Assembly (NCBI RefSeq): GCF_000341395.1
Contig: NC_020304.1
Span: forward strand, 870,001-902,000
Reading direction: 5' to 3'
Length of the DNA: 32,000 nucleotides
From: Desulfocapsa sulfexigens DSM 10523
GTDB lineage: Bacteria; Desulfobacterota; Desulfobulbia; Desulfobulbales; Desulfocapsaceae
Of the stretch, positions 1-28,410 are shown piece by piece (position 1 is the stretch's first letter; every line of letters starts with the position of its first letter). Under the pieces are notes generated by a model. It was given only the letters and a program-made list of their open reading frames with translations, ran no database searches and was not told the origin of the DNA. The position numbers and the translations under genes were made by a program.

Positions 1-879
1 CAAATTAATGGTCGCCCGGGGTGAGGCTCCGGTTTCTATATAGTCGTGAAGATCAAGCTTGAAACTTCTGGGATCACGGGTGGCACAGACGAGCGAAACA
101 ATATAATCTTTTATTTTGTCATCCATATAAATGCTATCTACCACCCTGCGTGAAGCAAGAATATCATCCGGTCCGACGACAGGATTAACCACAACAACAG
201 AATCAGTATGATCAACGGCGTCAAGGATCATACGCTCCTGAGTCATGGATGGATAATCCACAATAACCTTCATCATAAACCTGTCTACCTGTGCTTCGGG
301 CAATGGATAGGTCCCCTCCTGCTCAATGGGATTCTGGGTGGCAAGTACCAGAAAAAGCTCTGGCAGACGAAAGGTCTCGTCTCCAATAGTCACCTGTTTT
401 TCCTGCATGGCTTCAAGCATGGCAGACTGCACTTTGGCAGGAGCCCTATTGATCTCATCAGCAAGAATAAGCGACGAGAATATTGGTCCCTGCTTGACCT
501 CAAAAAGCGTATCCTTAGGATTATATATCTGAGTCCCTATAATATCGGCGGGCAGCATATCCGGAGTAAACTGGATACGCTGAAAATCCGTATGTATAAC
601 CATAGCGAGGGTTTTTACCGCCAGTGTCTTGGCAAGCCCCGGTAATCCCTCCAGCAGGATATGTCCTCCAGTAAGCAATCCCACAAGGAGACGTTCCACC
701 AGGTGCTCCTGGCCAATTATGGATTTAGCCATCTCCCGACGCAACAGACCAACCCAGGAAGAGCTCGCAACAACGGATTCATTGATAGCCTGAATGGAGG
801 TATATCCTTCCTGCCGTACTGATTGGGGTGGAAGAGATGCAGATGAAACCGGATTAACAGATCTATTTTGCTCGTTCAT
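1..879 (-). CDS. MoxR-family AAA+ ATPase, first 293 codons (3' end lies left of the window)
   Basis: Absent from the ORF track because it runs off the edge. My reverse-strand translation starts at the ATG (complement of 877-879), which is preceded by AAGGAG. It reads MNEQNRSV...IIGQEHLVERLLVGLLTGGHILLEGLPGLAKTLAVKTLA (Walker A), ...LILADEINRAPAKVQSAMLEAMQE (Walker B region), ...LVLATQNPIEQEGTYPLPEAQVDRF. This is the canonical MoxR/AAA_3 pattern. The frame stays open to position 1. Confidence 0.9.
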   Translation of the reverse strand, partial: MNEQNRSVNPVSSASLPPQSVRQEGYTSIQAINESVVASSSWVGLLRREMAKSIIGQEHLVERLLVGLLTGGHILLEGLPGLAKTLAVKTLAMVIHTDFQRIQFTPDMLPADIIGTQIYNPKDTLFEVKQGPIFSSLILADEINRAPAKVQSAMLEAMQEKQVTIGDETFRLPELFLVLATQNPIEQEGTYPLPEAQVDRFMMKVIVDYPSMTQERMILDAVDHTDSVVVVNPVVGPDDILASRRVVDSIYMDDKIKDYIVSLVCATRDPRSFKLDLHDYIETGASPRATINL

Positions 880-940
880 GGAGACTCCTTTTAACGGAAT
901 GAGGGTATCTTCTTATCAGGACTAAAGAATACCACAGAAA

Positions 941-979: not shown

Positions 980-1140
980 CTTGTACAATTTTCTGCCAAC
1001 GTGTCTTCAGCCACGCATTATTTCACCAAAAACCCTCCGCAGTCCGATACGTTTTAAATTTGTTCATCCAAGCCAATTATGATAACATCATAAATAATCA
1101 TTCACGATCTGTTCTCGATTTTCTGGTTTACTAAGGAACC

Positions 1141-1977
1141 ATGTTTATGAGAAAAATCATTCCGTTTGTCCTTGGCATTTTTCTTTTTCTCCCAACAAAC
1201 TCTTATGCGCTCGAACGCTTTGAAATTTTCACCACCTCTCAATTGATGCAGCTGCTTCAGGACAGAAAGGATGGAAAAACGGACTTTCTTCTCGTCAATG
1301 CCCTTGACGAAATGATCTACCGCCACGCCTTCATCCCCGGTTCGGTGAATATTCCCATCACCCAGTTTGGGCAATATGCTCACAGGCTCGGAAAAGACAA
1401 AAATAAGCTGATAATTTCATACTGAATGGGCTACAGGTGAGTATTCGCCTACAAAATGGCAGTTGCCATTAAAGCAAAAGGGTTCACAAATATTAAAATA
1501 TACAATGGTGGACTGAAGGACTGGATACAATCAGGCAATCCCACGGAATCAATAGAAACCCTTCCAGAAGCAACCGTCCAGTTTATCGATGTCAATCAAT
1601 TAAGGATGCTTCTTTCCGAGGCTGACAAGACAAACTGTATGGATAAAAATGGTAAACCACTTCTTACACTTATTGATTTCCGTTCCTCCAACAGTGATTC
1701 CATAAAAAAAGGGGCAGATAAATATCGGATAGCAACAAAATGCCATACCATTTCAGCATTGCTTGATGAATTTATTGACAACAATAGCCTTATCGAATCC
1801 ATCCCCTTAGAAGGACTTACTATTTCTATCAGTGAGACAGGAAACAGAGACACGTTCCTTATCAGATATCTCTCCAAATGTTGCAGACCTGATATCCGAG
1901 GTCTTAAATACGGTATGAGAAGCTGGATAAAGGCCGGGTATCCTGTGGAAAAAACAGCCCATTCGGACACAAACTAA
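1141..1977 (+). CDS. exported tandem rhodanese-domain protein with two in-frame TGA codons (candidate selenoprotein, 278 codons)
   Basis: ORF-track ORFs 1141..1425 and 1456..1977 share one frame. Only TGA(1423-1425)-ATGGGCTACAGG-TGA(1438-1440) plus 15 nt separates them. The joined translation begins with the signal peptide MFMRKIIPFVLGIFLFLPTNSYA. It continues ...DFLLVNALDEMIYRHAFIPGSVNIPI...KDKNKLIISY-[TGA]-MGYR-[TGA]-VFAYKMAVAIKAKGFTNIKIYNGGLKDWIQSGNP. The first TGA sits where rhodaneses carry the catalytic Cys of the C-x-x-G-x-R loop. A second, Cys-less rhodanese-like domain follows (ISISETGNRD...MRSWIKAGYPVE). Confidence 0.6.
1435..1470 (+). other. two adjacent small hairpins after the in-frame TGAs (candidate bacterial SECIS elements)
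   Basis: Hairpin 1 is AGGUGA-GUAU-UCGCCU (1435-1450): 6 bp including one G-U pair, with loop G 18 nt after the first UGA. Hairpin 2 is AAUGGC-AGUU-GCCAUU (1455-1470): 6 perfect bp, with loop G 24 nt after the second UGA. Both loops contain GU. The stems are short, so chance is not excluded. Confidence 0.35.
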
Positions 1978-4284
1978 ATGCTTAAAAGTCTTCGTGCCAA
2001 ACTCCGCATGATGCTGTTTTTCCTCAGCATCATCATTGCGTTAGCATTTCTGAACTTTCTGATGAACCAACGTGTTGTGAAACTGGAACGTGACTATGCT
2101 GAAGTTGTTGCAATCAACAATAACTTTGCCGATAACCTTGCCGGTGAATATAATTCTCTTGCCAACCCTGAAAAATTCTCAGACTTAAAAAACAACTATC
2201 TTGTGTTATATCAAAGCTGTACAGGCTGTCACAACTCTAATCCTGGCGAAATAATTATCACCAGGATTGCTTTCCTGGAGGAACTCAACGAAAACCAGCT
2301 CACCGGAATACAACTCAGGCACACCATAAATAACAGGCTTGATGAGCTGACGAAAAGTGTCCGCTATATTCATGAGCATCACATTGCCAGCCTGAAAAAC
2401 TTCCTCCAGCGTAATCAATTCAAGGAAGAACCGTACCCCAGCAATAACAGCGAAAGAAAAGATCCAATAGCATCAGCCCCGGAACTTGATATCATTCAGC
2501 TGACAATAGCTATTCAGAATATCCTGGCTGATATCATTAGCAATTTTTACCTTCTTAAGGATACCCAGACCCCTCTCAAACTTCAAAACGAATTTCTGAA
2601 TAATATTTCTCGTTTTTACTCTACCATCAACCTACTGGAATCCTCTTCACTCGATGCACAGGACGGACTTCTGGTGGAAGAACTTCTTGATTCCGGAAGA
2701 ACATTTGAAAATTCATTTTCAATACTGATTCAACTTGAAGAAACAGAAAGAAAGCTCTTTTTACAGCTCCACGATAACCAGAGAAGGATCCTTGGTGTTG
2801 TCTCCGACGTGACAGGGAAAGTGAAAACGAAACGTGATCGGCTCCACAATCAACTAACTTTTTTGGAATACTCCTCTTTTCTCTTTATTGCCTTCCTTAT
2901 GCTATTGATAGTGAAACAGGGAAGAGGAATTATCCACTCAATCGATCACCTGGTTAATGAAACCGGAAAAATCAAAAAAGATCACACTTATCAAATCTCG
3001 ACAGCGCCAAACCAGGAAGAAGAGTTTCAAATATTATCACAGGCTCTGAATAGTATGGCCGCGAATCTTGACCTAAGAATTCAGAAACTTAACGAAGAAA
3101 CGCGCCTAAGAATCCAGGCTGAGAAAGACAAAACAGAGACAGAAATAAAGCTGCAACGTGCTAAGCAGATGGAGGCCATCGGAACTCTTGCCGGAGGCAT
3201 TGCCCACGATTTCAATAATCTGCTCACAGCAATCCTTGGGAATATAAATATTGCCACCTACTCTCTTTCTCCAGACCATGAAGTATACAACAATCTGGTG
3301 CAGGCAGAAAAGGCATCAAAAAGAGCTCATAAACTCACTAATCAACTGCTCACTTTTTCCAAAGGTGGTGCTCCGATTAGAGAAACGGCTCCAATTGATG
3401 AGGTTATCCGGGAATCTGCCTTTTTTGTTCTTCATGGCAGCAATGTTAACTGCTCCATAGATATCCCGGATGATCTCTGGCTGGTCAAGATTGACAGAGG
3501 ACAGATTGGCCAGGTCATCCAGAACCTGACCCTGAATGCCGACCACAGTATGCCAGAGGGCGGTACCATTTCCATCAGCTGTTCCAATCACCAGGAGACC
3601 CAGGACAGCCCGATGCTCAAAAAAGGCGATTATGTCCGGGTTACTGTCCAGGACCAGGGAACAGGCATCAAGGACACTGATATCTCACATATTTTTGATC
3701 CCTACTTTACAACGAAAGAAAAGGGAAGCATCAAGGGAAGTGGCCTGGGGCTGGCCATCGTCCATTCAATCATCTCCAGACACGGTGGATACATCACCGT
3801 TGCCTCGGAATTAGGCACCGGGACTACCTTTACTTTTTTCCTTCCAGCGGTAAATACAACAGCAGACCTGCAGCAGGAGCCAAGTGGTGATATTCTCTCC
3901 GGAGAGGGGAGAATCCTTGTCATGGATGATGAATCAATGATACTCGCCATAATGGAACACTCACTACCCTCTCTTGGGTACACGGTTGAAACAGCAGACA
4001 GTGGAGAACAGGCATTGAGAATGTATGAAAAAGCTGCTAGAGATAATACTCCCTTTGATCTCGTCATCATGGATCTCACCATTCCGGGTGGCATGGGAGG
4101 AAGAGAGACGGCTGAAAAAATCCTGAAACGCCATCCGGATGCCGTGCTTCTTGTTTCCAGTGGCTACGCCGAGGATCCGATAATGATCAATCCAGCAGAA
4201 TACGGATTCAAAGGGGCACTCAAGAAGCCCTATGAACTCAGAAACCTCTCTCATCTGCTTCATACTTTATTACAGAAAAAGTAA
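1978..4284 (+). CDS. hybrid sensor histidine kinase / response regulator with periplasmic CXXCH-containing sensor domain
   Basis: Two TM segments (MMLFFLSIIIALAFLNFLM and SSFLFIAFLMLLIV) bracket a roughly 265-aa domain containing CTGCH. Then come a HAMP-like linker, a coiled coil and the H-box GGIAHDFNNLLTAILGNI. The HATPase motifs are QVIQNLTLNADHSM, DQGTGI and GSGLGLAIV. A C-terminal REC domain follows (ILVMDDES...DLVIMDLTIPGGMGG...KKP). The ATG directly abuts the rhodanese TAA. Confidence 0.9.
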   Translation: MLKSLRAKLRMMLFFLSIIIALAFLNFLMNQRVVKLERDYAEVVAINNNFADNLAGEYNSLANPEKFSDLKNNYLVLYQSCTGCHNSNPGEIIITRIAFLEELNENQLTGIQLRHTINNRLDELTKSVRYIHEHHIASLKNFLQRNQFKEEPYPSNNSERKDPIASAPELDIIQLTIAIQNILADIISNFYLLKDTQTPLKLQNEFLNNISRFYSTINLLESSSLDAQDGLLVEELLDSGRTFENSFSILIQLEETERKLFLQLHDNQRRILGVVSDVTGKVKTKRDRLHNQLTFLEYSSFLFIAFLMLLIVKQGRGIIHSIDHLVNETGKIKKDHTYQISTAPNQEEEFQILSQALNSMAANLDLRIQKLNEETRLRIQAEKDKTETEIKLQRAKQMEAIGTLAGGIAHDFNNLLTAILGNINIATYSLSPDHEVYNNLVQAEKASKRAHKLTNQLLTFSKGGAPIRETAPIDEVIRESAFFVLHGSNVNCSIDIPDDLWLVKIDRGQIGQVIQNLTLNADHSMPEGGTISISCSNHQETQDSPMLKKGDYVRVTVQDQGTGIKDTDISHIFDPYFTTKEKGSIKGSGLGLAIVHSIISRHGGYITVASELGTGTTFTFFLPAVNTTADLQQEPSGDILSGEGRILVMDDESMILAIMEHSLPSLGYTVETADSGEQALRMYEKAARDNTPFDLVIMDLTIPGGMGGRETAEKILKRHPDAVLLVSSGYAEDPIMINPAEYGFKGALKKPYELRNLSHLLHTLLQKK

Positions 4285-4298
4285 AAAGATTTTCAGCA

Positions 4299-6077
4299 GT
4301 GAATCATGATACCATGCCACTAAAGGATCCTCCTCCCATCAAAAAGGTGCTTGGACTCCTTGGACCAATCTACTTCAAACACCGCATTCGTCTCCTCTTT
4401 GGTCTGATTGCACTCCTTGGAGTCAATTTTCTCCAGCTTATAATTCCTCGTATTCTTAAAAAAGGAATTGATGCACTTGCAGATGGAACAGCCAACCAGA
4501 ACAACCTGCTCGAGCTCGCACTGCTTATCTGTTTTATCGGAGTCATTGCCACTCTGCTTCGTTTCAGCTGGCGCTACCTGATCATAGGATTCTCAAGATA
4601 TCTGGAACGGGACCTGCGGAAAAAGATTTTTGGCCATGTCATGACCATGGATGGAAGTTTTTTCTCCAAATATAGTACAGGTTCCATTATGGCCCACGGA
4701 AGCAACGACCTCGCGGCTGTTCAAATGGCTTGCGGCATGGGCCTCGTTGCTGCCATTGACGCCCTTGTAATGTCAATTGCGGCCATTGCCTTCATGGCCA
4801 ACATTCATTTACGCCTTACACTGCTGGCCCTTTTACCCATGCCAATTCTGGCTCTGGCTACCCGTTATCTTTCGGGACAACTGCACCATCGTTTTGATCG
4901 TGTCCAGGGACAGTTCGCCAGCATGACCGAGTTCGCAAGATCCTCCATCGCATCCATTCGCCTGCTTAAGGCCTACACTCTGGAGACATCACAGAGTAAA
5001 CGCTTTGCCCATCTTGGCCAGAAATATGTCCACTCCAGCATTCGGGTGGCAATCATTCAAGGCCTGCTCTTTCCCATAGCGACTCTTGTCGGGAGTTTCG
5101 GCATGTTGCTGGTACTCTATTTTGGTGGTCGGCTAGTCATCCTGAAAACAATTACCATGGGTGATTTTGTAGCCTTTATAACCTACCTCTATATGTTGAT
5201 CTGGCCCATCATGGCAGTTGGATGGGTGGCCAATCTTTCCCAGAGAGGAGCAACATCACTGCGCCGAATTTACCTCCTTCTTTCAGTTCCATCACAGCTT
5301 CCACCCGGCATCACTGGTCACCGACCAGATAGTTCCCTGTTTCACCTCCATAGGCTCAACTTCAACTATCCAGAATCAGAACGAAGGATACTTAAGGATA
5401 TCACTCTTGATATCCCGCCGGGAATCCTCGGCGTCACAGGTCCCACAGGATGCGGCAAGACCAGTCTCTGCCAGGTGCTGGCCCGTGTCTACCCTATAGC
5501 TGACCAGAGCCTCTTTTTAGGCAGAACAGATATCAACGATCTCCCCCCCGAAACCGTAAAATCTTTGATCAGTTATGTGAGCCAGGAAGCCCTGCTCTTT
5601 TCGAGCTGTCTTCGTGACAACATCGCCTTTGGGAATCCCGATGCATCCATGGAACGAATTGTTGCAGCAGCAACAGCGGCCGCTGTCCACGATGAAATAA
5701 TGGCTCTCCCTCACGGATACGAGAGTATGATTGGGGAAAAAGGCGTTACCCTCTCAGGAGGGCAGCGTGGCAGGGTCGCCCTTGCAAGAGCCATCCTCTG
5801 CGACAGGCCCATTATCATAATAGATGACGGCCTTGCCGCCGTGGACACGAGCACGGAACAGGAAATAATCGAAAATATCACACCATGGCTCAAAGGGAAA
5901 TCGGTCGTCTGGGTCAGTCAGCGAACCAAACAGCTTGCCCGAACAGACAGGGTTCTTGTTTTGGAAAACGGAAAAATCAGTGCCCTCGGCCCCTACAATG
6001 AGGTTGTTCGGGAAAATGCCTTCCTCGCCGAGATCAGCCGCAGACAAGAGCTTCAGGGAGAAGGCAACAATGCGTAA
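4299..6077 (+). CDS. ABC exporter half-transporter (TMD-NBD), degenerate-site subunit
   Basis: The N-terminal half has six TM helices. The NBD has Walker A GPTGCGKTS and signature LSGGQRGRVALARA. Walker B is IIIIDD followed by G, so Asp replaces the catalytic Glu. The switch region is VVWVSQRT, with Gln in place of His. The start is GTG at 4299; ATG at 4314 is an alternative. Confidence 0.9.
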   Translation: MNHDTMPLKDPPPIKKVLGLLGPIYFKHRIRLLFGLIALLGVNFLQLIIPRILKKGIDALADGTANQNNLLELALLICFIGVIATLLRFSWRYLIIGFSRYLERDLRKKIFGHVMTMDGSFFSKYSTGSIMAHGSNDLAAVQMACGMGLVAAIDALVMSIAAIAFMANIHLRLTLLALLPMPILALATRYLSGQLHHRFDRVQGQFASMTEFARSSIASIRLLKAYTLETSQSKRFAHLGQKYVHSSIRVAIIQGLLFPIATLVGSFGMLLVLYFGGRLVILKTITMGDFVAFITYLYMLIWPIMAVGWVANLSQRGATSLRRIYLLLSVPSQLPPGITGHRPDSSLFHLHRLNFNYPESERRILKDITLDIPPGILGVTGPTGCGKTSLCQVLARVYPIADQSLFLGRTDINDLPPETVKSLISYVSQEALLFSSCLRDNIAFGNPDASMERIVAAATAAAVHDEIMALPHGYESMIGEKGVTLSGGQRGRVALARAILCDRPIIIIDDGLAAVDTSTEQEIIENITPWLKGKSVVWVSQRTKQLARTDRVLVLENGKISALGPYNEVVRENAFLAEISRRQELQGEGNNA

Positions 6078-7872
6078 CTTCGGATATTTTGAAGAAGATT
6101 ACACTCCCAAACTTTCCGAGAAGGGATTATGGCGCCGTATCCTCGGCTACATCCATCCCTTCAGGATTCCCTTCACCGGTGCGATCCTGCTCTCCCTTTT
6201 TGTCACAGTCTCAGCGCTCGGCCTCCCCTGGATAATGCAGCGGGCTATTGATCTCTACATAACCAGCCCCATGCTCGATTTTGAACTACGCATGACAGGA
6301 CTCAGTACCAGTGTAATGCTCTACGGAGGGTTAATGCTTATCGGTTTTGTCACTGCTTTTCTCCAGGTCTTGCTCCTTGAATGGATCGGACAATCAATCA
6401 TGCACAGACTGCGCCAGGATCTTTTCAGTCATCTTCTCCAGGTCGAACTGCAGTTCTTCAACACCCAGCCGGTTGGCCGCCTGGTAACCCGCTTGACAAA
6501 TGATGTCCAGAACATGCACGAGATGTTCACATCCATCATGGTAACGATATTCAATGACCTCCTCCGCATGTGCGGCATCCTTGTCCTGCTTCTCTATATG
6601 AATATTCGGCTCGGCCTCCTTCTCTGCCTCTTTGTTCCACTTGCCGTCGTGGTTACCATTCTCTTTTCCAGACTCGCCAGGAATCATTTCCGAGCCATAC
6701 GAAAACAGCTTTCCAAAGTAAACGCATTTGTCCAGGAAGCTGTTTCAGGAGTCTCCCTGGTACAGCTGTTTGGAAGGAGTAGCGATCTCAAACGGAAGTT
6801 TGCAGGGCTTAACGACGATTACATGACAAAAACTCTGCGCCAGATCCGCCTCTTTGGTACATTTATGCCCATCACCGAACTGATGAGTTCGCTGGCAGTT
6901 GCGCTGATTCTCTGGTATGGCGGAGGAGAGATTATCCGTAAGCAACTGACCCTGGGAGAGCTGGTTGCTTTCCTCTCCTATATGCGCCTCTTCTTCCAAC
7001 CGCTCCGGGAGCTTTCACAAAAATATTCCATTGTCCAGTCCGCCCTTGCCTCCGCGGAACGGATCTTTCATCTACTGGATACAGACACCGAGGAACAGAA
7101 CATTTCAGAGGCTGAAAAAAACAGCCCTTTGTCACTGGATGGCGAGCTCTGTTTCAATGAAGTAAACTTCTCCTATCTTCCCGACCAGCCAGTCCTCCAT
7201 GATATCTCTTTTACGGTTAAAAAGGGCGAGACCATAGCCATAGTCGGCGCCACCGGAAGCGGGAAATCCACCCTTCTCAATCTTATGCTCCGTTTTTATG
7301 AACCAGACAGCGGTACCATCAGCCTTGGTGCGCACTTTCTTACTGATGTACCAAAAAAGACACTGCGCCGGGAAATCGGTGTTGTAATGCAGGAAATGCT
7401 TATTCTCCAGGACACCCTGTTGAACAATATTGTTCTTGATACAGGAAAAAGCCGAAAAGAGGTAACAGAACTGCTGCAACAGACCCAATTGATAGAATTT
7501 GTTACCAACCTCTCCATGGGACTCGATACACTTATAGGAGAAGGTGGACAGGCCATGTCAACCGGAGAAAAACAACTCCTCGCCATCGCCAGAGTATTAT
7601 GCCGCAATCCATCTCTGCTGGTACTTGACGAAGCCAGTTCTGCCATTGATTCCAAAACTGAAAAACTTCTGGAACGACCGCTTGAGCACTGTTTCAAAGA
7701 TAAAACCGTGTTAATTATCGCTCACCGCCTCTCCACCGTACAGCGTGCCGATCGAATCATTGTACTTGACAAGGGCAGGATCATGGAACATGGCAGCCAT
7801 GCCTCCCTCCTTGCCAGGGACGGGATTTACAGAAAACTGGTCGCTCTTGATTTCGGATCGGGAATTTCATAA
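6070..7872 (+). CDS. ABC exporter half-transporter (TMD-NBD), consensus-site subunit
   Basis: I moved the start to ATG 6070 (MRNFGYFEEDY...), which overlaps the upstream stop by 8 nt. The 45 codons the ORF track adds upstream lie inside the previous gene. Walker A is GATGSGKST, Walker B is LLVLDEASSAID (Glu present) and the H-loop is IIAHRLST. The signature motif is degenerate (MSTGEKQ instead of LSGGQ). Confidence 0.9.
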   Translation: MRNFGYFEEDYTPKLSEKGLWRRILGYIHPFRIPFTGAILLSLFVTVSALGLPWIMQRAIDLYITSPMLDFELRMTGLSTSVMLYGGLMLIGFVTAFLQVLLLEWIGQSIMHRLRQDLFSHLLQVELQFFNTQPVGRLVTRLTNDVQNMHEMFTSIMVTIFNDLLRMCGILVLLLYMNIRLGLLLCLFVPLAVVVTILFSRLARNHFRAIRKQLSKVNAFVQEAVSGVSLVQLFGRSSDLKRKFAGLNDDYMTKTLRQIRLFGTFMPITELMSSLAVALILWYGGGEIIRKQLTLGELVAFLSYMRLFFQPLRELSQKYSIVQSALASAERIFHLLDTDTEEQNISEAEKNSPLSLDGELCFNEVNFSYLPDQPVLHDISFTVKKGETIAIVGATGSGKSTLLNLMLRFYEPDSGTISLGAHFLTDVPKKTLRREIGVVMQEMLILQDTLLNNIVLDTGKSRKEVTELLQQTQLIEFVTNLSMGLDTLIGEGGQAMSTGEKQLLAIARVLCRNPSLLVLDEASSAIDSKTEKLLERPLEHCFKDKTVLIIAHRLSTVQRADRIIVLDKGRIMEHGSHASLLARDGIYRKLVALDFGSGIS

Positions 7873-8232: not shown

Positions 8233-8283
8233 GTCTTTTTGACAAACATCTCTTCGGGCATTTTATTCAAAAGAGGAAAGAAA

Positions 8284-10263
8284 ATGACAAAAAGATATTA
8301 TCCACTTCTCTGTGCACAACTTTTTACCATTGCGGTCGTACCAGGTATTTCTGCAGCAGAGACAAATTCCACAACACTGATGGAAGAAGTTGTTGTCACC
8401 GCCAGCCGAACAGAAGAGAGCAGGGCCACAGTCAGTTCGAATATCAGCATCATCAGCGAAGACGATATTCGCCAATCCGCATCAGACAATGTGGCTGATC
8501 TACTGGCCGAACAGTCCATTGCCACCATCAAGAAATATCCCGGAACACTCACATCCATTGCCCTGCGTGGCTTCTCAACTGACACCCACGGGAACGACCT
8601 TCAGGGACATGTTCTGGTTCTCCTCGACGGGCGCCGTGCAGGAACCGGCAATCTTGCAAAAATTCTTACTAAAAACGTAGCGCGAATCGAGGTTATTCGT
8701 GGCCCCGGAGCTGTACAGTATGGGTCGGCAGGAATGGGCGGAGTCGTCAATGTCATAACAAAAAGAGCAACTGACAATTCGATTTTCACCGAGGCCTACG
8801 GTGGATCCTTTGACACTGCTGAAGGAAGTATCGGTGGATCTTTCCTGAAAGATGGTGTTGATTTTACCGGTTCCTACACATACGGAACCACTGGCGACTA
8901 TGACACAGGCAACGACGAGCACTATCGGAACAGCGGAATTAACTACGAAACCGGAATGAGTACCAATCTCGGCTATTCATTCTCAGAGCTAAACCGAATC
9001 GGACTGATTTTTACCCGTTTTGAGGTAGATGAAGCAGGGACCCCTGGTTTTCTGAACAGGAACGATCTGGATGACTACTCAAACAAAGAGAACTATTCCG
9101 CAGACCTCAATTTTGAAGGACAGTGTCCGCTGACAGAATCGAGAATTTTCGCCCGTTACTTCTTTGGCCAGGACGAAAACAGCTGGATGGATCCTACGGT
9201 TTCCAACCCCAGCGGCTGGAATGATGGGCAGCTGTCGAAAAACAAAACGGACCAACAGGGAGCACAATTTCAACTCAGCCGTGCTCTTGGCCTTGCGACT
9301 CTCACAGCTGGATTTGACTGGTTAGATTATGAAGTAGAAAACAGCTGGACACCAAACACAACTGAATACTCCAACTCTGCCATCTTTCTACTCAGCAGGC
9401 TCTCCTTCCTTGAAGATCGACTCAGTGCAAACATTGGACTGCGTTACGACTGGTATGATGTTGCAGTCACGAACCCGGCAGGGCACAATGCTGATGACAG
9501 CCATTTCACCCCTCAGTTTGGTGTCGCCTGGATGGTGAGCGATACATTGAAACTGAGAGCCCAATACGGAGAGGCCTTTATGATGCCTTCCGCTGACCAG
9601 ATGAGTGCCGATTACTCCAGTTTTGGTTCAAGAGTCGTTGGAAATCCTGGTCTTTCCCCCGAAAAAAGTGCTACCTGGGAGGGCGGTGTGGATTATGGTC
9701 AGAATGGATTCACTGGATCACTCACCTATTTCCATACGGATTTCAAAGACAAAATTGTCAGTGATCCCCTTCTCGATGGATCAAGGAGTTGGAAAAACCT
9801 CGGCGATGCAACCATTTCCGGTATTGAAGCGGAATTTGCCTATGATATCGGCCTGCCACTTGGCCTGGCCTGGGAAGTCCGTCCTTATCTCAATATGACC
9901 ATCCTTACCCGGTATGATGATGAGCAGAGCGGAGAGGATCTTCAAAATATCAGCGCCACGAATTATTCTGCAGGTGTCGTAGTCAACGACGGTGATGGAA
10001 TCTTTTGCCGTCTCAATACTGCCTATTCTGGAAGCCAGAATATTAAGGACTATGAATCAGACTTTCCCTACCGGAATGGCACATTGGATTCTCATATCGT
10101 GACAGACCTGACAGCCTCCTATCGCTTCTATGAAGATTCACGTTTGGGTAGCTTTACTCTACGGGGCGAGTTACAAAATATCTTCGACCAGGACTACGCC
10201 TATGTCAAAGGATACCCCATGCCAGGTCGCGGTTTCTATGCCGGACTCCGCTGGGATTTTTGA
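8284..10263 (+). CDS. btuB: TonB-dependent outer-membrane receptor, BtuB-like (riboswitch-controlled)
   Basis: The start is ATG 8284, after AGAGGAAAG. The signal peptide is MTKRYYPLLCAQLFTIAVVPGISAA. The TonB box is EEVVVTASRTEE, followed by a plug domain (RGFSTDTHGNDL...VLVLLDGRR...IEVIRGPGAVQYGS). The C-terminus RGFYAGLRWDF ends in an aromatic residue. A cobalamin riboswitch lies upstream. Confidence 0.9.
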   Translation: MTKRYYPLLCAQLFTIAVVPGISAAETNSTTLMEEVVVTASRTEESRATVSSNISIISEDDIRQSASDNVADLLAEQSIATIKKYPGTLTSIALRGFSTDTHGNDLQGHVLVLLDGRRAGTGNLAKILTKNVARIEVIRGPGAVQYGSAGMGGVVNVITKRATDNSIFTEAYGGSFDTAEGSIGGSFLKDGVDFTGSYTYGTTGDYDTGNDEHYRNSGINYETGMSTNLGYSFSELNRIGLIFTRFEVDEAGTPGFLNRNDLDDYSNKENYSADLNFEGQCPLTESRIFARYFFGQDENSWMDPTVSNPSGWNDGQLSKNKTDQQGAQFQLSRALGLATLTAGFDWLDYEVENSWTPNTTEYSNSAIFLLSRLSFLEDRLSANIGLRYDWYDVAVTNPAGHNADDSHFTPQFGVAWMVSDTLKLRAQYGEAFMMPSADQMSADYSSFGSRVVGNPGLSPEKSATWEGGVDYGQNGFTGSLTYFHTDFKDKIVSDPLLDGSRSWKNLGDATISGIEAEFAYDIGLPLGLAWEVRPYLNMTILTRYDDEQSGEDLQNISATNYSAGVVVNDGDGIFCRLNTAYSGSQNIKDYESDFPYRNGTLDSHIVTDLTASYRFYEDSRLGSFTLRGELQNIFDQDYAYVKGYPMPGRGFYAGLRWDF

Positions 10264-10297
10264 GGCAGCGGGGAATGAAGCGAACATTTTGACTTGA

Positions 10298-10324
10298 AGC
10301 CCTGAAAAGAGTACATTCAGGGCT
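10298..10324 (+). terminator. 9-bp hairpin after the btuB-like gene (possible attenuator or weak terminator)
   Basis: AGCCCTGAA-aagagtaca-TTCAGGGCT. No clear T tract follows, so read-through into the CbiK-like gene is likely. Confidence 0.3.
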
Positions 10325-10392
10325 GCTGTCATTTACAATTTCACTCAATTTCCCAGCCTATAGATGGCGATGGATCAGCCAAAGGAATCAAT

Positions 10393-11250
10393 ATGCATCA
10401 GTATGGATATATCGGCCGCAAATTGCGCGTCCCGAAACTCAAGAACAAACCAGCCATTATCATGGTCACCTTTGGTACCAGCAGTCAGGCAGAAAGGCCA
10501 CTGGGCCTGTTTCAGCAGCAGGTGGAAAAACAATTTGGGGAATACGAAACCTTCTGGGCGTACAGCTCAAACATCATCTGCAGAAAAAAGAAACTGCCGA
10601 GCCTGCAGCAGACCCTTGCAACTGTAGAGGCTGCAGGATTTCGTAAAGCTGTGGTTCAGCCCCTGCATATATTTCCGGGAACTGAGTATCAGCAGATGGC
10701 AGAGACCTGCGAATATTTCCCTGGCATTCGGGTTTTCCTCAGTGAAACCTTACTGCACCGCTGGAGCTTTGTTAAAGAGACCCTGGCCGTGGTTGAAAAG
10801 GAGTTTCTCGCTCCGGCAGAAGGCCTTAATATCCTGGCCCTCCATGGGACTCCCCTGGTTGCAGACCCGGTCAACAGCGGCTATCTCGGTCTTGAAAAAC
10901 TCGTTACAGACCGCTACCCGAACGTGCTCGCCGCATCCCTTGAGGGAGTGCCTGACAGTGACGCGGTATTTGCCGGAATACAAAACAAAAATATGGCCGA
11001 AAAGTATCGACAGATAAAAATAATTCCCATGATGTACCTGGCTGGAATGCACGCTGAAGAAGACCTTATGGCCCCAAAGAAAGTTGATAGCTGGCGTGTT
11101 ATCCTTGAATCCATGGGATTTGCTGTGGAATGTCCGATGGTTCAACATGGTAAAAAAGACTTTTTCAAGGGCCTTGCCTACTACCCGGAAATCATCTCAT
11201 TCTTCACGGACCGATTGCAACGAACCCTTGAAATAGCTGAGACCTACTAA
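10393..11250 (+). CDS. cbiK: CbiK-type (anaerobic) sirohydrochlorin cobaltochelatase-like protein, apparently cytoplasmic
   Basis: AIIMVTFGTSS matches the CbiK N-terminal strand. LALHGTP...NSGYLGLEKL matches the GHGT..Y..L His motif. IPMMYLAGMHAEEDL matches the AGdHa.nD motif. No signal peptide. RBS AAAGGAA. Confidence 0.7.
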   Translation: MHQYGYIGRKLRVPKLKNKPAIIMVTFGTSSQAERPLGLFQQQVEKQFGEYETFWAYSSNIICRKKKLPSLQQTLATVEAAGFRKAVVQPLHIFPGTEYQQMAETCEYFPGIRVFLSETLLHRWSFVKETLAVVEKEFLAPAEGLNILALHGTPLVADPVNSGYLGLEKLVTDRYPNVLAASLEGVPDSDAVFAGIQNKNMAEKYRQIKIIPMMYLAGMHAEEDLMAPKKVDSWRVILESMGFAVECPMVQHGKKDFFKGLAYYPEIISFFTDRLQRTLEIAETY

Positions 11251-11255
11251 AGCAC

Positions 11256-12110
11256 ATGTACAGACAACTCTTTGTCTTTTTCTTTTTTGTCCTATGTCTC
11301 TTCGGATCTCCTGTACAGGGGGCCGATGTCACATATCCTCAGCGCATAGTCTCCCTGGGGCCAATCAATACCGAAAACGTCTTCCTTCTGGGGGCTGGTG
11401 ATCGCCTTGTCGCCAATACCAGCTACTGCGTCCGCCCAGAGGCCGCTAAAGCCAGAGAAAAGATAGGTTCTGTAATGCAGGTTTCCATTGAAAAGATTAT
11501 TGGGCTACAACCTGACCTGGTACTGGCAACCGGCCTAACCTCGATGCAGCAAATTAAGCAGCTGGAGTCCGTTGGCATTAACGTTGTTCAGTTCAAGCAG
11601 CCATCATCTTTAGCGGATATCTGTACCCAGTTCCTCCTCCTCGGCCAGCTCCTTGGCCTTGAAAACCGGGCAAAAGCGCTCATTTCTGAAACAAAGGAAA
11701 GACTGAATAATCTTGAGAAGAAAATTGCCGGGGCGCCACCGCAGAAGGTCTTTCTTCAGGTAGGTTCCCAGCCACTATTCTCCTCGGTACCAAGCTCCTT
11801 CACCAATGACTTTATTGTCCTTGCCGGCGGCAGTAACATCGCAGCAGATCAGCAAAAAGGTACCACAAATTATGAAAAAGTGATCGCTGCCAACCCCGAT
11901 GTGATTATCATAGCCATGATGGGATCCGAAAGTGGTATTGCCTCAAAAGAACGTGAGCGATGGATGGAGATGCCTGTCATCAGTGCAGTGCAAAACAATC
12001 GGGTACATGTGATCAATCCTGACATCGCCTGCAGTCCTTCACCCGCGACCTTTACCGACACTCTTGAGATCATGGCCCGTCTGATTCACCCTGAACTCTA
12101 CACCCCATAA
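11256..12110 (+). CDS. periplasmic substrate-binding protein, BtuF / Fe-siderophore (cluster A, PBP_2) family
   Basis: The signal peptide is MYRQLFVFFFFVLCLFGSPVQGA. QRIVSLGPINTENVFLLGAGDRLVANTSYC is the typical BtuF/FhuD-type N-terminal motif. PDVIIIAM and RVHVINPD match the C-lobe. Confidence 0.75.
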   Translation: MYRQLFVFFFFVLCLFGSPVQGADVTYPQRIVSLGPINTENVFLLGAGDRLVANTSYCVRPEAAKAREKIGSVMQVSIEKIIGLQPDLVLATGLTSMQQIKQLESVGINVVQFKQPSSLADICTQFLLLGQLLGLENRAKALISETKERLNNLEKKIAGAPPQKVFLQVGSQPLFSSVPSSFTNDFIVLAGGSNIAADQQKGTTNYEKVIAANPDVIIIAMMGSESGIASKERERWMEMPVISAVQNNRVHVINPDIACSPSPATFTDTLEIMARLIHPELYTP

Positions 12111-12114
12111 AACC

Positions 12115-12729
12115 ATGAGAATTTACGAAATCATCCAAAGCGGTGGCCCGGTGATGTGGCCACTGCTCCTCTGTTCCGTGACGGTATGCACCGTTGTTCT
12201 GGAACGCAGTTTCTTCTGGATTTCCATCCAGCGCAGACGTAACCGTAAGCTGACGGATGAAGTCCTGACTCTTGCAGAAAGTGCTGACTGGAAGCTAATC
12301 CGTGAAAAAGTAACCGGCTGTCAAGACCATATCATCCGACTGCTGGTGGTTGGTATTCTGCACAGAGATTATGATATGGGCCGGGCCATGGAAGCTGAGG
12401 CGAACTTGATGATTCAGCGAATGAACCGCTTTATGCCAGTACTGGATACCATGATCACGGTGGCACCTCTGCTTGGAATATTCGGAACGGTACTCGGAAT
12501 CATCGGATCCTTTAAGATCCTTGGCAACAGTGGCATTGCCGATCCGAAGCTGGTCACATCCGGCATCGCCCAGGCACTCATCACAACTGCGGCAGGACTT
12601 GGCATCTCTATCATCGCGGTGATCCCCTACAACTACTTCAATACCCGAATAAACCGAGCAGTTCATGTGATGGAAAAGTATGCAACCAACCTGGAAGTGG
12701 TTTATGAAAAGCTGGACACCCCATCATGA
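12115..12729 (+). CDS. exbB: MotA/TolQ/ExbB proton-channel protein
   Basis: Three TM helices. The conserved C-terminal half is LDTMITVAPLLGIFGTVLGII...IAQALITTAAGLGISIIAVIPYNYF. Confidence 0.85.
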   Translation: MRIYEIIQSGGPVMWPLLLCSVTVCTVVLERSFFWISIQRRRNRKLTDEVLTLAESADWKLIREKVTGCQDHIIRLLVVGILHRDYDMGRAMEAEANLMIQRMNRFMPVLDTMITVAPLLGIFGTVLGIIGSFKILGNSGIADPKLVTSGIAQALITTAAGLGISIIAVIPYNYFNTRINRAVHVMEKYATNLEVVYEKLDTPS

Positions 12730-13139
12730 AAATTAAAGCTCAAGCAATCAAGGCACCGCGTATCGAGATGCTGCCACTCATCGATGTTGTCTTTCTGCTA
12801 CTGGTTTTCTTTATTTACGCAATGCTTTCCATGGCAGTGCATCGGGGAATGCAGCTTGATCTTCCGGAATCAACAGAGGCAACTGACAGTCATGAAAGCC
12901 CGTTTTCATTAACCATTCGTAGTGATGATAAAGATATGACACTTTTTCTCAATGAAAAACCTCTCCTCCTTTCTCAACTGGCTCAACATTTTGACTCAGT
13001 GGATACCAGCAACGGAAAAAAACCTTCAGTTCTTATTTTTGCAGACGAAAACATCAGCTACCAACAACTGTATCAGGTTCTCGATGAACTCAAAAAATGC
13101 GGGGTTTCGGATATTTCACTGCAGGCAAATCCGAAATAA
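12726..13139 (+). CDS. exbD: ExbD/TolR biopolymer transport protein
   Basis: An ATGA overlap joins it to exbB. The N-terminal motif is EMLPLIDVVFLLLVFFI. The C-terminal periplasmic domain reads VLIFADENISYQQLYQVLDELKKCGV. Confidence 0.85.
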   Translation: MKIKAQAIKAPRIEMLPLIDVVFLLLVFFIYAMLSMAVHRGMQLDLPESTEATDSHESPFSLTIRSDDKDMTLFLNEKPLLLSQLAQHFDSVDTSNGKKPSVLIFADENISYQQLYQVLDELKKCGVSDISLQANPK

Positions 13140-13145
13140 GCTCCT

Positions 13146-13811
13146 GTGCGAAGATTTATCCCTGCCCTGATCCTTGCCCTTTGTCTCCACATCTTCTTAC
13201 TGATATCAAGGTTTCCACACCTTCCAACACTTCCGCCACGTTTAACCGGGCAAGAAAGTGTTACCATCAGCCTCAGTCCAGGCAGCAGTGTTGAAAAGCA
13301 AACAGAAACCGTAACAAAAGAAGAGCAGAGGAACACCATTGAAAAACCTGAGAAGGACGAGGCCGCAGTGGAAACGTCTGAGAAAATAAATACTCACGAC
13401 AAACAACCAGTCGTTTTAAAAAAAAAGGCTGTTCAGAAAATTGTCCACTCTCCCTCAGTCCCTGAACAGAAAAAGGCAGGGGTACAGAACAGTGCCAGAC
13501 CGAGAGAGGAGAGTGAACTACCTGCTGTTCCCATCCTCGTAAAGGCCTCACCGCACTATGCAAGCAATCCAAAGCCGGAATATCCCGCACTGGCCCGCCG
13601 TCGCAACCAGCAGGGAACTGTTATGGTATCTGTAACTGTTTCAGAAAAAGGAGTTCCAGACAGGGTCAGCCTCCACAAAAGCAGCGGTTATCCACTGCTG
13701 GACAAATCTGCTCTGAAGGCAGTCACCTTATGGCACTTTCTTCCAGGAACGACAGCTGGCCATCCCGTTGCCACGGAGGTACTGATCCCGGTACATTTCA
13801 AACTTCATTAG
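13146..13811 (+). CDS. tonB: TonB-family energy transducer
   Basis: GTG start and an N-terminal TM anchor, then a Glu/Lys/Pro-rich linker. The TonB_C domain is PEYPALARRRNQQGTVMVSVTVSEKGVPDRVSLHKSSGYPLLDKSALKAVTLWHFLPG. Confidence 0.85.
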   Translation: MRRFIPALILALCLHIFLLISRFPHLPTLPPRLTGQESVTISLSPGSSVEKQTETVTKEEQRNTIEKPEKDEAAVETSEKINTHDKQPVVLKKKAVQKIVHSPSVPEQKKAGVQNSARPREESELPAVPILVKASPHYASNPKPEYPALARRRNQQGTVMVSVTVSEKGVPDRVSLHKSSGYPLLDKSALKAVTLWHFLPGTTAGHPVATEVLIPVHFKLH

Positions 13812-20928: not shown

Positions 20929-21515
20929 ATGCCCACTAAAGGTCAAGAGACTCGTAAACACATCCTGACAGAGAGCCGTAAGCTCTTTACTGTCCAGGGA
21001 TTTCAAAACACAAGCATCAGTGAAATAATTGCTGCGACAAGGGTAAAAAAGGAAATCTCTATTACTACTTTCCCAGCAAAGAGGAACTCGGCTTGGCCGT
21101 GCTGATTGATGCCAGGGATGAATTTTTCCATATTCTGGAAAACTCTCTGACCGGAGAAACCCCGATTCTCAGAATAATCAACTCCTGTAATTCAGTCATG
21201 GAACTCATGCAGCAAACAAACTTTGTCGGCGGTTGCCTGTTTGGTAATACGGCCCTGGAGATGACAGATTCCAACCCCAGATTCGGAGAAATTATACAGG
21301 AAATTTTCACCCACTGGACAACCAGGATAGAACAGCAGGTACTGCAGGCAACTGACACTGGAGAATTCAAAAGTGAAATACCATCCCATTCCCTGGCAAC
21401 TGCCATTGTTTCCATGCTGGAAGGAGGGATCATGTTTTCACGGGTCTATGGCAACAAAAAGGGACTCGAAGACTGTATCCTGGCCATCCGTTCCTTTCTG
21501 AAATGCCGAAGGTAG
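20929..21515 (+). pseudogene. TetR/AcrR-family regulator interrupted by a 1-nt frameshift in an A6 run
   Basis: Frame 1 gives MPTKGQETRKHILTESRKLFTVQGFQNTSISEIIAATRVKK. The TetR HTH then continues in another frame as (K)KGNLYYYFPSKEELGLAVLIDARDEFF...GCLFGNTALE...LEGGIMFSR to the stop at 21515. The switch falls in AAAAAA at 21045-21050; seven As would give one continuous ORF. Confidence 0.75.
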
Positions 21516-23990: not shown

Positions 23991-24068
23991 TTGTTACGTT
24001 CCTCCCTTTTAGGTATGAAATATGTGAGACAAAATATAAAAAAATAACTGAACACACTGGGAATTCCC

Positions 24069-24082
24069 TTGAGTTACATCAA
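24069..24082. promoter_or_regulatory. FNR/CRP-family type box upstream of the HAO-like gene
   Basis: TTGAG-ttac-ATCAA matches TTGAT-N4-ATCAA at 9 of 10 positions and is centred about 85 nt upstream of the ATG. On the coding strand a TATTTT hexamer starts 22 nt after the box, which is class II geometry. Confidence 0.4.
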
Positions 24083-24105
24083 AATATCAAAGTCTCTCCC
24101 TGTGG

Positions 24106-24417
24106 TTAATAATTCCGCGTGACGAAATCGACATACTCTCTCCATAATCTTGGTGGATCCAGAATTTGAAAATCGATCTCCCTTCCTTGATTATCTGATA
24201 GCGTGATTATGTTACAGACCCTGACAGAAATGGATATTGTCTGGTTGCTGGTAAGTATCAGTTTTATGGGGGCACGTGTCTTCTCATCAAACTGATCTGG
24301 AAGACCACTTGCCCTGAAGCTTGAACACGTAATGTTGCCTATGGTGCACTTATAATAAAATCTGCTGTCGGAAATCCTTATGGACAATTTTTTTGTGCTC
24401 ACCGCCAGTTCCTTCAA
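24106..24417 (-). CDS. hypothetical protein (possibly a degenerate PilZ-like beta-barrel)
   Basis: 103 codons with only a TTG start, which overlaps the stop of the HPP-like remnant (TTGA). There is a weak PilZ-like pattern (RISDSR ... GNITCSSF ... IKLILT ... ISVRV ... IDFQIL) but the canonical RxxxR and DxSxxG motifs are not intact. Confidence 0.35.
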   Translation of the reverse strand: MKELAVSTKKLSIRISDSRFYYKCTIGNITCSSFRASGLPDQFDEKTRAPIKLILTSNQTISISVRVCNIITLSDNQGREIDFQILDPPRLWREYVDFVTRNY

Positions 24418-24638
24418 TACCAGAATTCCGGGTATTGCCTTCTGGCGGACAAGTTATTGACCAGCAAGCCGATAACCAGCATGATTAATGTCCCCAGTCC
24501 CCCAGAAATGAAGGCATACAGATATCCAATATCATGAGTCTTATTGCTGTCGATGATCATAACCATGCCACCTTGGAACAGCCACGCAGCCTCTTCCCTG
24601 AAAAATTCATCTCTGGTAAGATGTCGATAGCACCAGCA
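24414..24638 (-). pseudogene. C-terminal remnant of an HPP-family membrane protein gene
   Basis: This open frame is too short for the ORF track. It ends ...HDIGYLYAFISGGLGTLIMLVIGLLVNNLSARRQYPEFWY*. That matches the last TM helix and the NNL...RR.YP..W tail that I recall for HPP-family proteins. No HPP motif or earlier helices are present. An internal ATG at 24566 would give only 50 aa. Confidence 0.4.
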
Positions 24639-24667
24639 TCACCTTTTGGTGTTTGTATTTCACCAGC

Positions 24668-25627: not shown

Positions 25628-25667
25628 AGTGTGCCTCATAAAAGAAAAAGTTCGTATAGCAATACTA

Positions 25668-25685
25668 TGTGAAAACCCGTTCACA
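25668..25685. promoter_or_regulatory. perfect TGTGAA-N6-TTCACA palindrome upstream of the DUF438 gene
   Basis: TGTGAAaacccgTTCACA is centred about 50 nt upstream of the ATG at 25627. Confidence 0.5.
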
Positions 25686-28398: not shown

Positions 28399-28410
28399 AA
28401 CATCCTCCTT

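Follow-up and report, generated by a model that had tools for sequence, protein, structure and literature searches.

We analyzed a window of 32,000 nucleotides (nt) from Desulfocapsa sulfexigens DSM 10523 (contig NC_020304.1, positions 870,001 to 902,000 of the forward strand) and found that its positions 1141-1977, on the forward strand, hold one gene for a probable exported tandem-rhodanese selenoprotein. The gene is recognized by a single reading frame that is interrupted twice by TGA in the active-site loop of the first rhodanese domain, by a Pfam Rhodanese match, by its recurrence in 32 loci, and by purifying selection on both sides of the TGAs. We consider it likely that both UGA codons are read as selenocysteine (Sec) through two small hairpins, H1 and H2, and propose that the two-domain protein may serve in the periplasm as a co-sensor for the hybrid histidine kinase encoded directly after it. 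Decoding of both UGAs as Sec is strongly supported by the comparative sequence data, and the proposals on what the mature protein would do are put forward with less confidence.

Translation of 1141-1977 confirmed an earlier note on this DNA, which had taken two listed open reading frames (ORFs) to be a single frame with TGA at codons 95 and 100. The frame runs for 278 codons from ATG 1141, or 276 codons from ATG 1147, to a TAA stop, and is interrupted nowhere except by the in-frame TGAs at 1423-1425 (codon 95, UGA-1) and 1438-1440 (codon 100, UGA-2). Both of the ORFs in the program-made list (1141-1425 and 1456-1977) belong to this one frame. Because a Shine-Dalgarno-like AAGGA (1133-1137, forward strand) lies 9 nt before ATG 1147 and only 3 nt before ATG 1141, the true start is likely ATG 1147 (MRKIIPF), in agreement with the Joint Genome Institute (JGI) call of 92 amino acids (aa) for the N-terminal piece on the near-identical contig L039. 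With that start the Sec residues would be numbered 93 and 98; codons are counted from ATG 1141 throughout this text. Public records split the gene in two, as JGI does at L039 9692-9970 and 10001-10522, and family members are named 'hypothetical protein' or truncated 'rhodanese-like domain-containing protein' by the National Center for Biotechnology Information (NCBI). We conclude that 1141/1147-1977 is one functional gene, neither two ORFs nor a pseudogene.

The same fragmentation was found throughout the family. In a protein search, about 70 clusters were retrieved with lengths of roughly 173 aa, matching the ORF picked by gene callers past the second TGA, and a search with the N-terminal domain returned fragments of 92-105 aa that stopped exactly at ...LIISY or ...YCMGYR. 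The hosts in these records were Desulfocapsa, Desulfocapsaceae, Desulfobulbaceae, Desulfobulbia, Desulfobacteraceae and metagenome-assembled genomes of Desulfobacterales. We read 32 family loci on DNA, comprising the window, seven genome loci, the contig of the database entry P0005 (L008), 21 of 29 metagenome loci, and two loci found through their kinase. The frame continued past the TGAs in each of them, and none of the homologues was truncated at this point; truncation was one of the outcomes that the earlier note had named as speaking against its proposal.

The two UGA codons differed in how strictly they were kept. UGA-2, which occupies loop position +5, was TGA in all 32 loci, while UGA-1, at the position of the catalytic Cys, was TGA in 17 loci and TGT or TGC in the other 15. 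Such a pattern, recurring in 32 independent assemblies, is far beyond chance. The loop of the first domain, Y-U-M-G-Y-R-U in the window, was nearly invariant in the family as Y-[U/C]-[M/V]-G-Y-R-U-V together with the residues that follow, and the four codons between the TGAs stayed in frame as MGYR, or as VGYR in 2 of 25 distinct sequences.

Alignment to the canonical rhodanese 6MXV placed codon 95 on the catalytic Cys, as had been proposed from the sequence, and codon 100 on the Ser at the end of the CxxGxR[S/T] loop. BH2092 of B. halodurans (3NHV/3O3W) aligned as iityCwgpaCngatk on iisyUmgyrUvfayk, with Cys at both UGA positions, its catalytic Cys again matching codon 95. Distant rhodaneses (P0074, P0075, P0126, P0138, P0219, P0227 and those on L030-L033 and L035) carried Y-C-x4-C at the same place. 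P0094 (L038 111-926), a Sec-free orthologue with 51% identity, read YCKGHGSV, which puts Cys at the catalytic position and Ser where the family has its invariant Sec; its contig of 1.2 kb is too short to show a kinase partner. What aligns with codon 100, a question left by the earlier note, is therefore TGA in every family locus, Cys in the C-x4-C relatives and Ser in P0094. On these alignments the family-invariant predicted Sec is the one at codon 100, in the loop-capping +5 position that holds Ser or Thr in canonical rhodaneses, and the catalytic position at codon 95 switches between Cys and predicted Sec across the family. Members with TGA at both codons (U..U) and members with Cys at the first (C..U) were interleaved on a neighbour-joining tree, so the switch at codon 95 occurred several times.

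Both UGAs are accompanied by small hairpins on the forward strand. H1 (1435-1450; AGGUGA/GUAU/UCGCCU; minimum free energy (MFE) -6.9 kcal/mol, z -3.5) starts 9 nt past UGA-1 and is the proposed selenocysteine insertion sequence (SECIS) for that codon. The stem of H2 (1455-1470; AAUGGC/AGUU/GCCAUU; MFE -7.2 kcal/mol, z -2.9) starts 14 nt past UGA-2, for which H2 is the proposed, family-wide SECIS. The hairpins thus stand where the earlier note had put them, but its picture of one hairpin after each TGA needs amending, as UGA-2 sits within the 5' arm of the H1 stem and not upstream of it.

Pairing in H2 was kept at 94.7% across 25 distinct family sequences. Compensatory changes were found in three of its six pairs, with 17 cells changed on both sides; none of 500 shuffles matched this, and controls slid along the alignment collapsed. 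RNAalifold found H2 without being supplied with a structure. Synonymous third positions covaried across the stem, Thr ACG/ACA with Ala GCC/GCU and Lys AAA/AAG with Ile/Val NNU/NNC, and the codons of the loop were frozen, with Val108 being GUU in 24 of 25 sequences (background 0.27) and Ala107 being GCA in 22 of 25 (background 0.23). The published bacterial SECIS (bSECIS) model specifies a loop of 3-9 nt with G in its first two positions, a stem of 4-16 bp, a spacing of 16-37 nt and an MFE of -7.5 kcal/mol or lower. As an element for UGA-2, H2 fits this model in its 4-nt AGUU loop, 6-bp stem and 20-nt spacing, and its family mean MFE was -7.9 kcal/mol.

H1 followed the state of codon 95. A perfect 6-bp stem was present in all 10 distinct U..U sequences, compared to 4 of 15 C..U sequences (Fisher p = 5e-4, not corrected for phylogeny), and the mean MFE was -6.4 kcal/mol in the U..U group and -1.8 kcal/mol in the C..U group. 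In the 10 U..U sequences Arg99 was always AGG (background 0.12) and Ala103 always GCC (background 0.41), whereas in C..U sequences with an imperfect H1 the Arg codon drifted to CGN and the Ala changed to Ser. The Sec-free orthologue P0094 kept only three of the six H1 pairs and has lost the hairpin. Together, these patterns support the view that both hairpins are real and under selection at the RNA level.

Two dedicated mini-SECIS elements are the favoured arrangement. In this scheme, SelB and Sec-tRNA(Sec) would decode both UGAs as Sec. H1 would serve UGA-1 while the ribosome stands 9 nt upstream of it, and the advancing ribosome would then melt H1, in whose 5' arm UGA-2 lies. Five codons on, UGA-2 would be decoded with H2, whose stem begins 14 nt downstream.

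The protein itself appears to be exported. Residues encoded at 1141-1209 form a predicted Sec-type signal peptide (MFMRKIIPFVLGIFLFLPTNSYA, cleavage before LERF) by a rule-based reading of its basic n-region, hydrophobic core and small residues at -3 and -1, and homologues have equivalent signal peptides ending A|LERF or G|MERF, so that the signal peptide noted earlier is conserved. When the joined 278-aa translation was given Cys at both TGAs, it passed the Pfam Rhodanese model (PF00581) at 44.8 bits against a cutoff of 22.2 over residues 39-130. This N-terminal domain (1255-1530), with its intact catalytic loop, is predicted to be catalytically competent.

The second domain (1570-1962) has a rhodanese fold without a catalytic Cys. 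The fold had been proposed earlier for the region downstream of the TGAs; the 173 C-terminal aa of the window protein fell below Pfam significance on their own, and the assignment rests on precomputed PF00581 matches of homologues and on a structure model of one of them, examined with Foldseek. The model was built with AlphaFold2 for P0005, a homologue called with Trp at both Sec positions, from a 70-sequence alignment, and reached a predicted local distance difference test score (pLDDT) of 91 and a predicted template modelling score (pTM) of 0.85. Its N-terminal domain superposes on BH2092 (3NHV) at 2.0 Å over 112 columns. Foldseek aligned both halves to the tandem rhodaneses 6MXV, 1YT8 and 1E0C, its best Protein Data Bank matches, but the arrangement of the two domains is unlike that of these proteins (template modelling score about 0.35-0.44, root-mean-square deviation >9 Å).

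A degenerate active-site loop, S-I-S-E-T-G-N-R-D (1825-1851), marks the second domain, and ETGNRD was invariant in all eight aligned members. In a manual alignment anchored on RYL, the domain-2 loop was set against the CxxGKxS loops of the exported tandem relatives P0126, P0138, P0219 and P0227, and Ser or Thr was found at the Cys position. Domain 2 is read as Cys-less because [S/T]-E-T-G-N-R-D stands where these relatives have C-x-x-G-K-x-S. Two other Cys residues of the domain, Cys166 (1636-1638; C143 of the mature protein) and Cys201 (1741-1743; C178 of the mature protein), are invariant alignment columns and might form a structural disulfide. A Cys-Cys pair in the same domain (SKCCRPD, 1876-1890) is shared only with a near-identical contig (P0001), and other members have [FY]-G-[YF] there.

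The gene is followed by a membrane hybrid histidine kinase gene (1978-4284, forward strand), identified with Pfam and NCBIfam by its HisKA, HATPase_c and receiver domains, whose ATG abuts the rhodanese stop codon. Of the 21 loci with sufficient flanking sequence, 19 had a similar kinase gene next after the rhodanese gene, at gaps of -11 to +29 nt. By a hydropathy scan, the kinase has transmembrane helices at about residues 11-29 and 293-313, and the roughly 260 residues between them form its predicted periplasmic sensor domain (2065-2856). No Pfam match was found in the kinase before residue 402. The sensor domain contains two near-invariant motifs, SVxYIHEHHIAxLKN (2356-2400) and SLDAQDG[LI]LVEELL (2647-2688), and in the window also CTGCH, a putative c-type heme-binding motif (CxxCH) at about residue 81 (2218-2232).

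A search with nothing but the sensor domain gave seven matches, and in all three contexts examined, split rhodanese ORFs lay directly upstream; two of these were verified on DNA as Y-U-MGYR-U. The rhodanese gene is the first in its transcription unit, with a divergent MoxR/Bat-type operon upstream, and no third neighbour was conserved: the flanks vary between loci, and no reductase, electron donor or transporter was conserved nearby. The conserved neighbours are, then, an exported protein and a kinase whose sensor domain is predicted to lie in the periplasm. We propose that the mature protein acts in the periplasm, where residues 95 and 100 may form a selenenyl-sulfide or a diselenide/perselenide centre on the rhodanese loop. 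The Cys-less domain 2, with its invariant ETGNRD loop, may serve ligand binding or docking, and the rhodanese may be a redox or sulfane-sulfur co-sensor for the co-transcribed hybrid kinase, whose sensor domain lies in the same compartment.

Several observations weigh against parts of this interpretation. The function is read from synteny and loop chemistry only. Two loci, L002 and L011, which are identical in sequence in the hairpin region, have a NifU-like gene downstream and not a kinase gene; its product is a 230-aa NifU_N-like protein, with a Pfam E value of 1.8e-4 that is just above the cutoff. About half of the partner kinases lacked the CxxCH motif, and its presence showed no apparent correlation with the U..U or C..U type. 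As for the hairpins, the MFE of H2 in the window (-7.2 kcal/mol) is just short of the bSECIS threshold, and H1, with its GUAU loop and 6-bp stem, departs from the model twice, in its spacing of 15 nt from UGA-1 and its MFE of -6.9 kcal/mol. A perfect H1 was retained in four C..U members. P0094 retains five of the six H2 pairs, so the conservation of H2 may partly reflect the invariant A-V-A peptide, and the GU of the H1 loop belongs to the invariant Val101 codon, so that there RNA and protein constraint are not discriminated.

A permissive Rfam scan of 1380-1540 gave only chance-level matches and no SECIS family, which tells little, as the Rfam bacterial SECIS models are gene-specific. Also to be counted here is the finding that neither the 32-kb window nor the 21 fetched loci contained selA, selB, selC, selD or tRNA-Sec. 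Competence for Sec is supported at the level of the lineage only, by a Desulfocapsaceae genome with 56 selenoprotein genes in BSepDB and by a review that places Thermodesulfobacteriota among the phyla richest in selenoproteins.

The most serious alternative concerns function, and we judge it possible but somewhat improbable: the protein may be a stand-alone periplasmic enzyme, similar to Sud or PspE, that acts as a sulfurtransferase or reductase on polysulfide, thiosulfate, selenite or arsenate, in which case the adjacent kinase would regulate only rhodanese expression or an unrelated regulon. The rhodanese fold with its intact catalytic loop and the sulfur-cycling Desulfobulbia hosts are in keeping with an enzyme, and periplasmic rhodaneses such as Sud and PspE are themselves enzymes or sulfur carriers. 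Redox catalysis is also suggested by the selenoprotein TsoB, in which a related domain is fused to a DsbD-like electron transporter. Against an enzyme acting on its own stand the kinase as sole conserved neighbour, with no reductase, electron donor or transporter kept beside it, the close spacing of the two genes, and the co-occurrence of the sensor domain in all three independently found contexts. Domain 2 lacks a catalytic Cys yet keeps an invariant loop, and a lost Cys with a kept loop is typical of regulatory rhodanese modules.

A second alternative, which we hold to be unlikely, accepts Sec at both positions and assigns H2 as the only SelB-binding element for both UGAs; H1 would then be a spacer able to collapse, or a pause element. 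The folded H1 would shorten the path from UGA-1 to H2 to roughly 14 nt, the distance from UGA-2 to H2, and the melted H1 would expose UGA-2. The distances of H2 from UGA-1 (35 nt) and from UGA-2 (20 nt) both fall within the 16-37 nt of the bSECIS model, and so a separate SECIS for UGA-1 is not strictly required; H1, as described above, falls outside that model in both spacing and MFE. When H1 is folded, the single-stranded RNA between UGA-1 and H2 amounts to 9 + 4 nt plus the helix end, and a spacer role would account for H1 being needed only where UGA-1 is present. H1 is otherwise like a mini-SECIS, however: it begins 9 nt past the UGA and has a 6-bp stem and a 4-nt loop whose first two letters are GU. 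The mini-helix of E. coli fdhF works at 11 nt, and we know of no bacterial SECIS that acts across another hairpin lying in between. The sequence by itself does not discriminate between the two models; of these, we favour one element for each UGA.

Reading of the UGAs without selenium, through reassignment of TGA to Trp or Gly or through near-cognate insertion of Trp or Cys, is very improbable. Its one support is that the database entries P0005 (L008 512-1294) and P0076 show W at both Sec positions, but the W residues of P0005 are TGA in the DNA, so they are products of gene calling with genetic code 4 and not real Trp. TGA terminates 5 of the 19 other genes in the window, including that for the TonB-dependent receptor, as well as several family members, which bears out the earlier statement that it is a normal stop here. 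In relatives the aligned residue is Cys and never Trp, and the GU-loop hairpins covary with the UGAs.

Last, the region might not encode a selenoprotein at all and might be a pseudogene, a sequencing error, or two small genes for a 94-aa exported peptide and a 173-aa protein. Selection had been proposed as a check on the downstream frame, and by the Nei-Gojobori method the ratio of nonsynonymous to synonymous substitution rates (dN/dS) was 0.07-0.44 for the 167-179 codons after the second TGA and 0.06-0.31 before the first TGA. The constraint was similar upstream and downstream, and the comparison included pairs in which both members are U..U. Codon 106, the ATG at 1456 in the window, encoded Thr or Ala in 14 of the 25 distinct sequences and was therefore no consistent internal start after UGA-2. 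Downstream purifying selection and the lack of a consistent internal start exclude a pseudogene, a sequencing error and an independent gene pair. Although public callers annotate two ORFs and the window does offer an ATG at 1456, these readings are effectively refuted by the comparative data, as the identical TGAs recur in independent assemblies, MGYR/VGYR is conserved in frame between them, a split would cut the rhodanese active-site loop, and about half of the family joins the N-terminal part to MGYR by a Cys codon. The interpretation of the gene as one for a probable two-Sec selenoprotein, first advanced in the earlier note, is supported by these comparisons, and each of the note's refuting conditions that was checked came out in its favour.

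Among known systems, the closest match was to TsoB. A review table (PMC13188914) lists five rhodanese selenoprotein forms, UxxS, UxxG, CxU, UxxG and UxxxxU, the last with two Sec residues and represented by TsoB (NF045694), a rhodanese/DsbD fusion-like protein called 'rhodanese form 5' (Haft & Tolstoy 2025, as tabulated in PMC13188914). TsoB was the best NCBIfam match of the window protein, with residues 27-141 aligned to profile positions 43-162 at 46.4 bits against a cutoff of 805, and the two share the U-x4-U spacing on the rhodanese loop (U95-MGYR-U100). The Cys-x4-Cys relatives match this region of the TsoB model at 78-91 bits, from which it follows that TsoB and the window family share one C/U-x4-C/U rhodanese subclade. 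Since the match begins at about profile position 40, the rhodanese domain of TsoB would lie near the N-terminus of a DsbD-type membrane protein, which suggests that it also faces the periplasm.

Unlike TsoB, the window protein has no DsbD-like membrane domain, is 278 residues long compared to a 572-position profile, and carries a Cys-less second rhodanese domain. Its first Sec is facultative within the family, and its conserved neighbour is a histidine kinase and not TsoA or TsoC; no Tso model (TsoA, TsoC, TsoX, TsoY) was among the NCBIfam matches listed, up to the 25 best families for each protein, for the 20 window ORFs scanned. On score, architecture and neighbourhood, the window protein is not a member of TsoB.

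Nor does it belong to rhodanese_LYCAU (NF041203), for which it scored 35.2 bits against a cutoff of 115 and whose motif is L-Y-C-A-U (CxU), not Y-U-M-G-Y-R-U. A UxU rhodanese was reported in 2007 from an Olavius symbiont (PMC1976440). The CxU and UxU rhodaneses resemble the window family in having Sec in or beside the catalytic loop and hosts of the Deltaproteobacteria type, and some of them have evolved a second Sec next to the first; they differ in their spacing, x1 instead of x4, and their profile of about 126 positions makes them single-domain proteins.

Among Cys-containing proteins, BH2092 (3NHV, 3O3W) matches YUMGYRU with YCWGPAC column for column, so that Cys replaces Sec at each of the two positions. 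The exported tandem rhodaneses P0126, P0138, P0219 and P0227 have a signal peptide and two domains like the window protein, with Cys at both positions, and unlike it they retain the canonical catalytic Cys in domain 2. A literature search found no function assigned to Cys-x4-Cys rhodaneses. In bovine rhodanese, RhdA and SseA an inactive N-terminal domain precedes a C-terminal domain with the catalytic Cys, and this order is reversed in the window protein. Sud, the polysulfide-sulfur transferase of Wolinella, and PspE of E. coli are exported rhodanese-fold proteins that handle periplasmic sulfane sulfur; they are single-domain and Cys-based and have neither a second loop chalcogen nor a sensor-kinase pairing, unlike the window protein. 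PspE was a weak NCBIfam match of the latter.

The hairpins resemble bacterial SECIS elements of the fdhF type, in which a hairpin lies just downstream of the UGA in the coding region and has a small apical loop with G and then U. The fdhF loop is GGUC, which the H2 loops of the family (AGUU, GGUC, GGUU) resemble. In contrast to the fdhF type and the bSECISearch model, the stems here have 6 bp without a bulged U, and two elements fit within 36 nt; the second UGA lies in the stem of the first element, and H1 stands 1 nt nearer to its UGA than the lower limit of the bSECISearch model allows.

The pairing of an exported protein with a kinase also has precedents, as TorT/TorS and LuxP/LuxQ are pairs of an accessory periplasmic protein and a hybrid sensor kinase in which the exported soluble protein is encoded beside the kinase. 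The core of the window kinase resembles TorS and LuxQ at the level of HisKA, HATPase and REC. The accessory protein here is, however, a rhodanese selenoprotein and not of the periplasmic binding-protein fold, the sensor domain is unrelated, and the interaction is proposed from inference only.

A rhodanese loop with a Sec residue on either side is thus not a new idea, and the earlier claim of novelty holds only in part, because UxxxxU (TsoB) and UxU rhodaneses had been published. As for the remark in the earlier note that no such case was known to it in a protein with a signal peptide, the selenoprotein catalogue also lists DsbA-like, DsbG-like and TonB-receptor selenoproteins, families that are normally exported. 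What is new is the family itself, its facultative first Sec, the nested hairpin pair that tracks the first Sec, and the near-constant kinase partner. The family is absent from the 2026 selenoprotein catalogue (PMC13188914) and has no NCBIfam model, and a literature string search for the loop motif returned chance substrings only.

Other features of these loci and of the window were recorded as well. On L040 (1900-3000; CP070697.1, Desulfobacterales, 6.8 Mb), a family gene with Y-U-MGYR-U has a frameshift after ...IKIYNGGL, reflecting either a real pseudogene or assembly indels; NCBI names the adjacent kinase 'partial', and a gene for a sigma-54-dependent response regulator follows the kinase. 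Upstream of the rhodanese gene in the window, a divergent gene for a MoxR-type AAA+ ATPase (1-890, reverse strand) runs off the window start; on L039 it heads a DUF58/BatA/VWA/BatD operon. Downstream of the kinase lies a pair of ATP-binding cassette (ABC) exporter genes of the SmdA/SmdB, MsbA or CydDC type (4299-7872, forward strand), which was found beside the kinase elsewhere only in the near-identical contig L009. The TTG start of the second exporter gene at 5935 overlaps the first gene by 143 nt and is probably over-extended, with the profile match beginning at about residue 60; JGI calls a 600-aa product for this gene on the sister contig.

No second selenoprotein gene was found among the candidate frames in the window. 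What mimics a double-UGA read-through at 30518-31774 (reverse strand) looks like two genes in the same frame: a lipoprotein gene (30896-31714, reverse strand) is followed by two TGAs 13 codons apart and then by a small Glu/Arg-rich exported protein with a signal peptide and its own start. The frame at 27739-28431 (forward strand) did not look coding and was rejected as a read-through gene. The TonB receptor of the window scored 49-60 bits against cutoffs of 700-850 as a selenoprotein of the FCYXU, CU or PUIUD type, and the multiheme cytochrome at 22701-23990 had no in-frame TGA extension; both were dismissed.

That cytochrome, of 429 aa and with weak similarity to hydrazine dehydrogenase, belongs to a cluster at 22701-27490 (reverse strand) together with a hemerythrin-PAS protein (24668-25684) and a hybrid-cluster protein/hydroxylamine reductase (25856-27490, reverse strand; 819 bits). 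The TonB-dependent receptor, of the heme/B12 type, is the first in a series at 8239-13811 (forward strand) that continues with CbiK-like, BtuF-like, ExbB, ExbD and TonB genes. At 20982-21515 (forward strand), a TetR-like C-terminal region (…GNLYYYFPSKEELG…) has no intact in-frame N-terminal helix-turn-helix and a TGA just upstream, and may be a degraded regulator gene.

For annotation, the consequence is that a family present in 32 loci, and in many more database fragments, is at present split into two meaningless ORFs or wrongly coded; recognizing it would mend these records and bring the rhodanese forms in the selenoprotein catalogue to six. For recoding, two UGAs 15 nt apart, each apparently tied to its own 16-nt hairpin, offer a compact and testable system in which to explore the minimal size of a bacterial SECIS and its shortest workable distance from the UGA. 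The invariant Sec lies off the catalytic position and replaces the loop-capping Ser/Thr, which points to a chalcogen-chalcogen bond across the loop and not to a simple Sec-for-Cys upgrade.

A broader possibility, which we regard as rather doubtful, is that the two genes form an unrecognised periplasmic signalling module of Desulfobulbia and Desulfobacterales, in which the state of the rhodanese is read by a new class of sensor domain and which carries a nested pair of minimal SECIS elements. If this is true, the YIHEHH/SLDAQDG sensor domain, sometimes with heme c, would read the redox or sulfane-sulfur state of a selenenyl-sulfide/diselenide rhodanese, and the family would provide repeated natural experiments, each a catalytic Sec-to-Cys change followed by the decay of exactly one hairpin. 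At the level of physiology, the pairing of this selenoprotein with a periplasmic sensor kinase of an uncharacterised type suggests that sensing depends on selenium in these sulfur-cycling bacteria.

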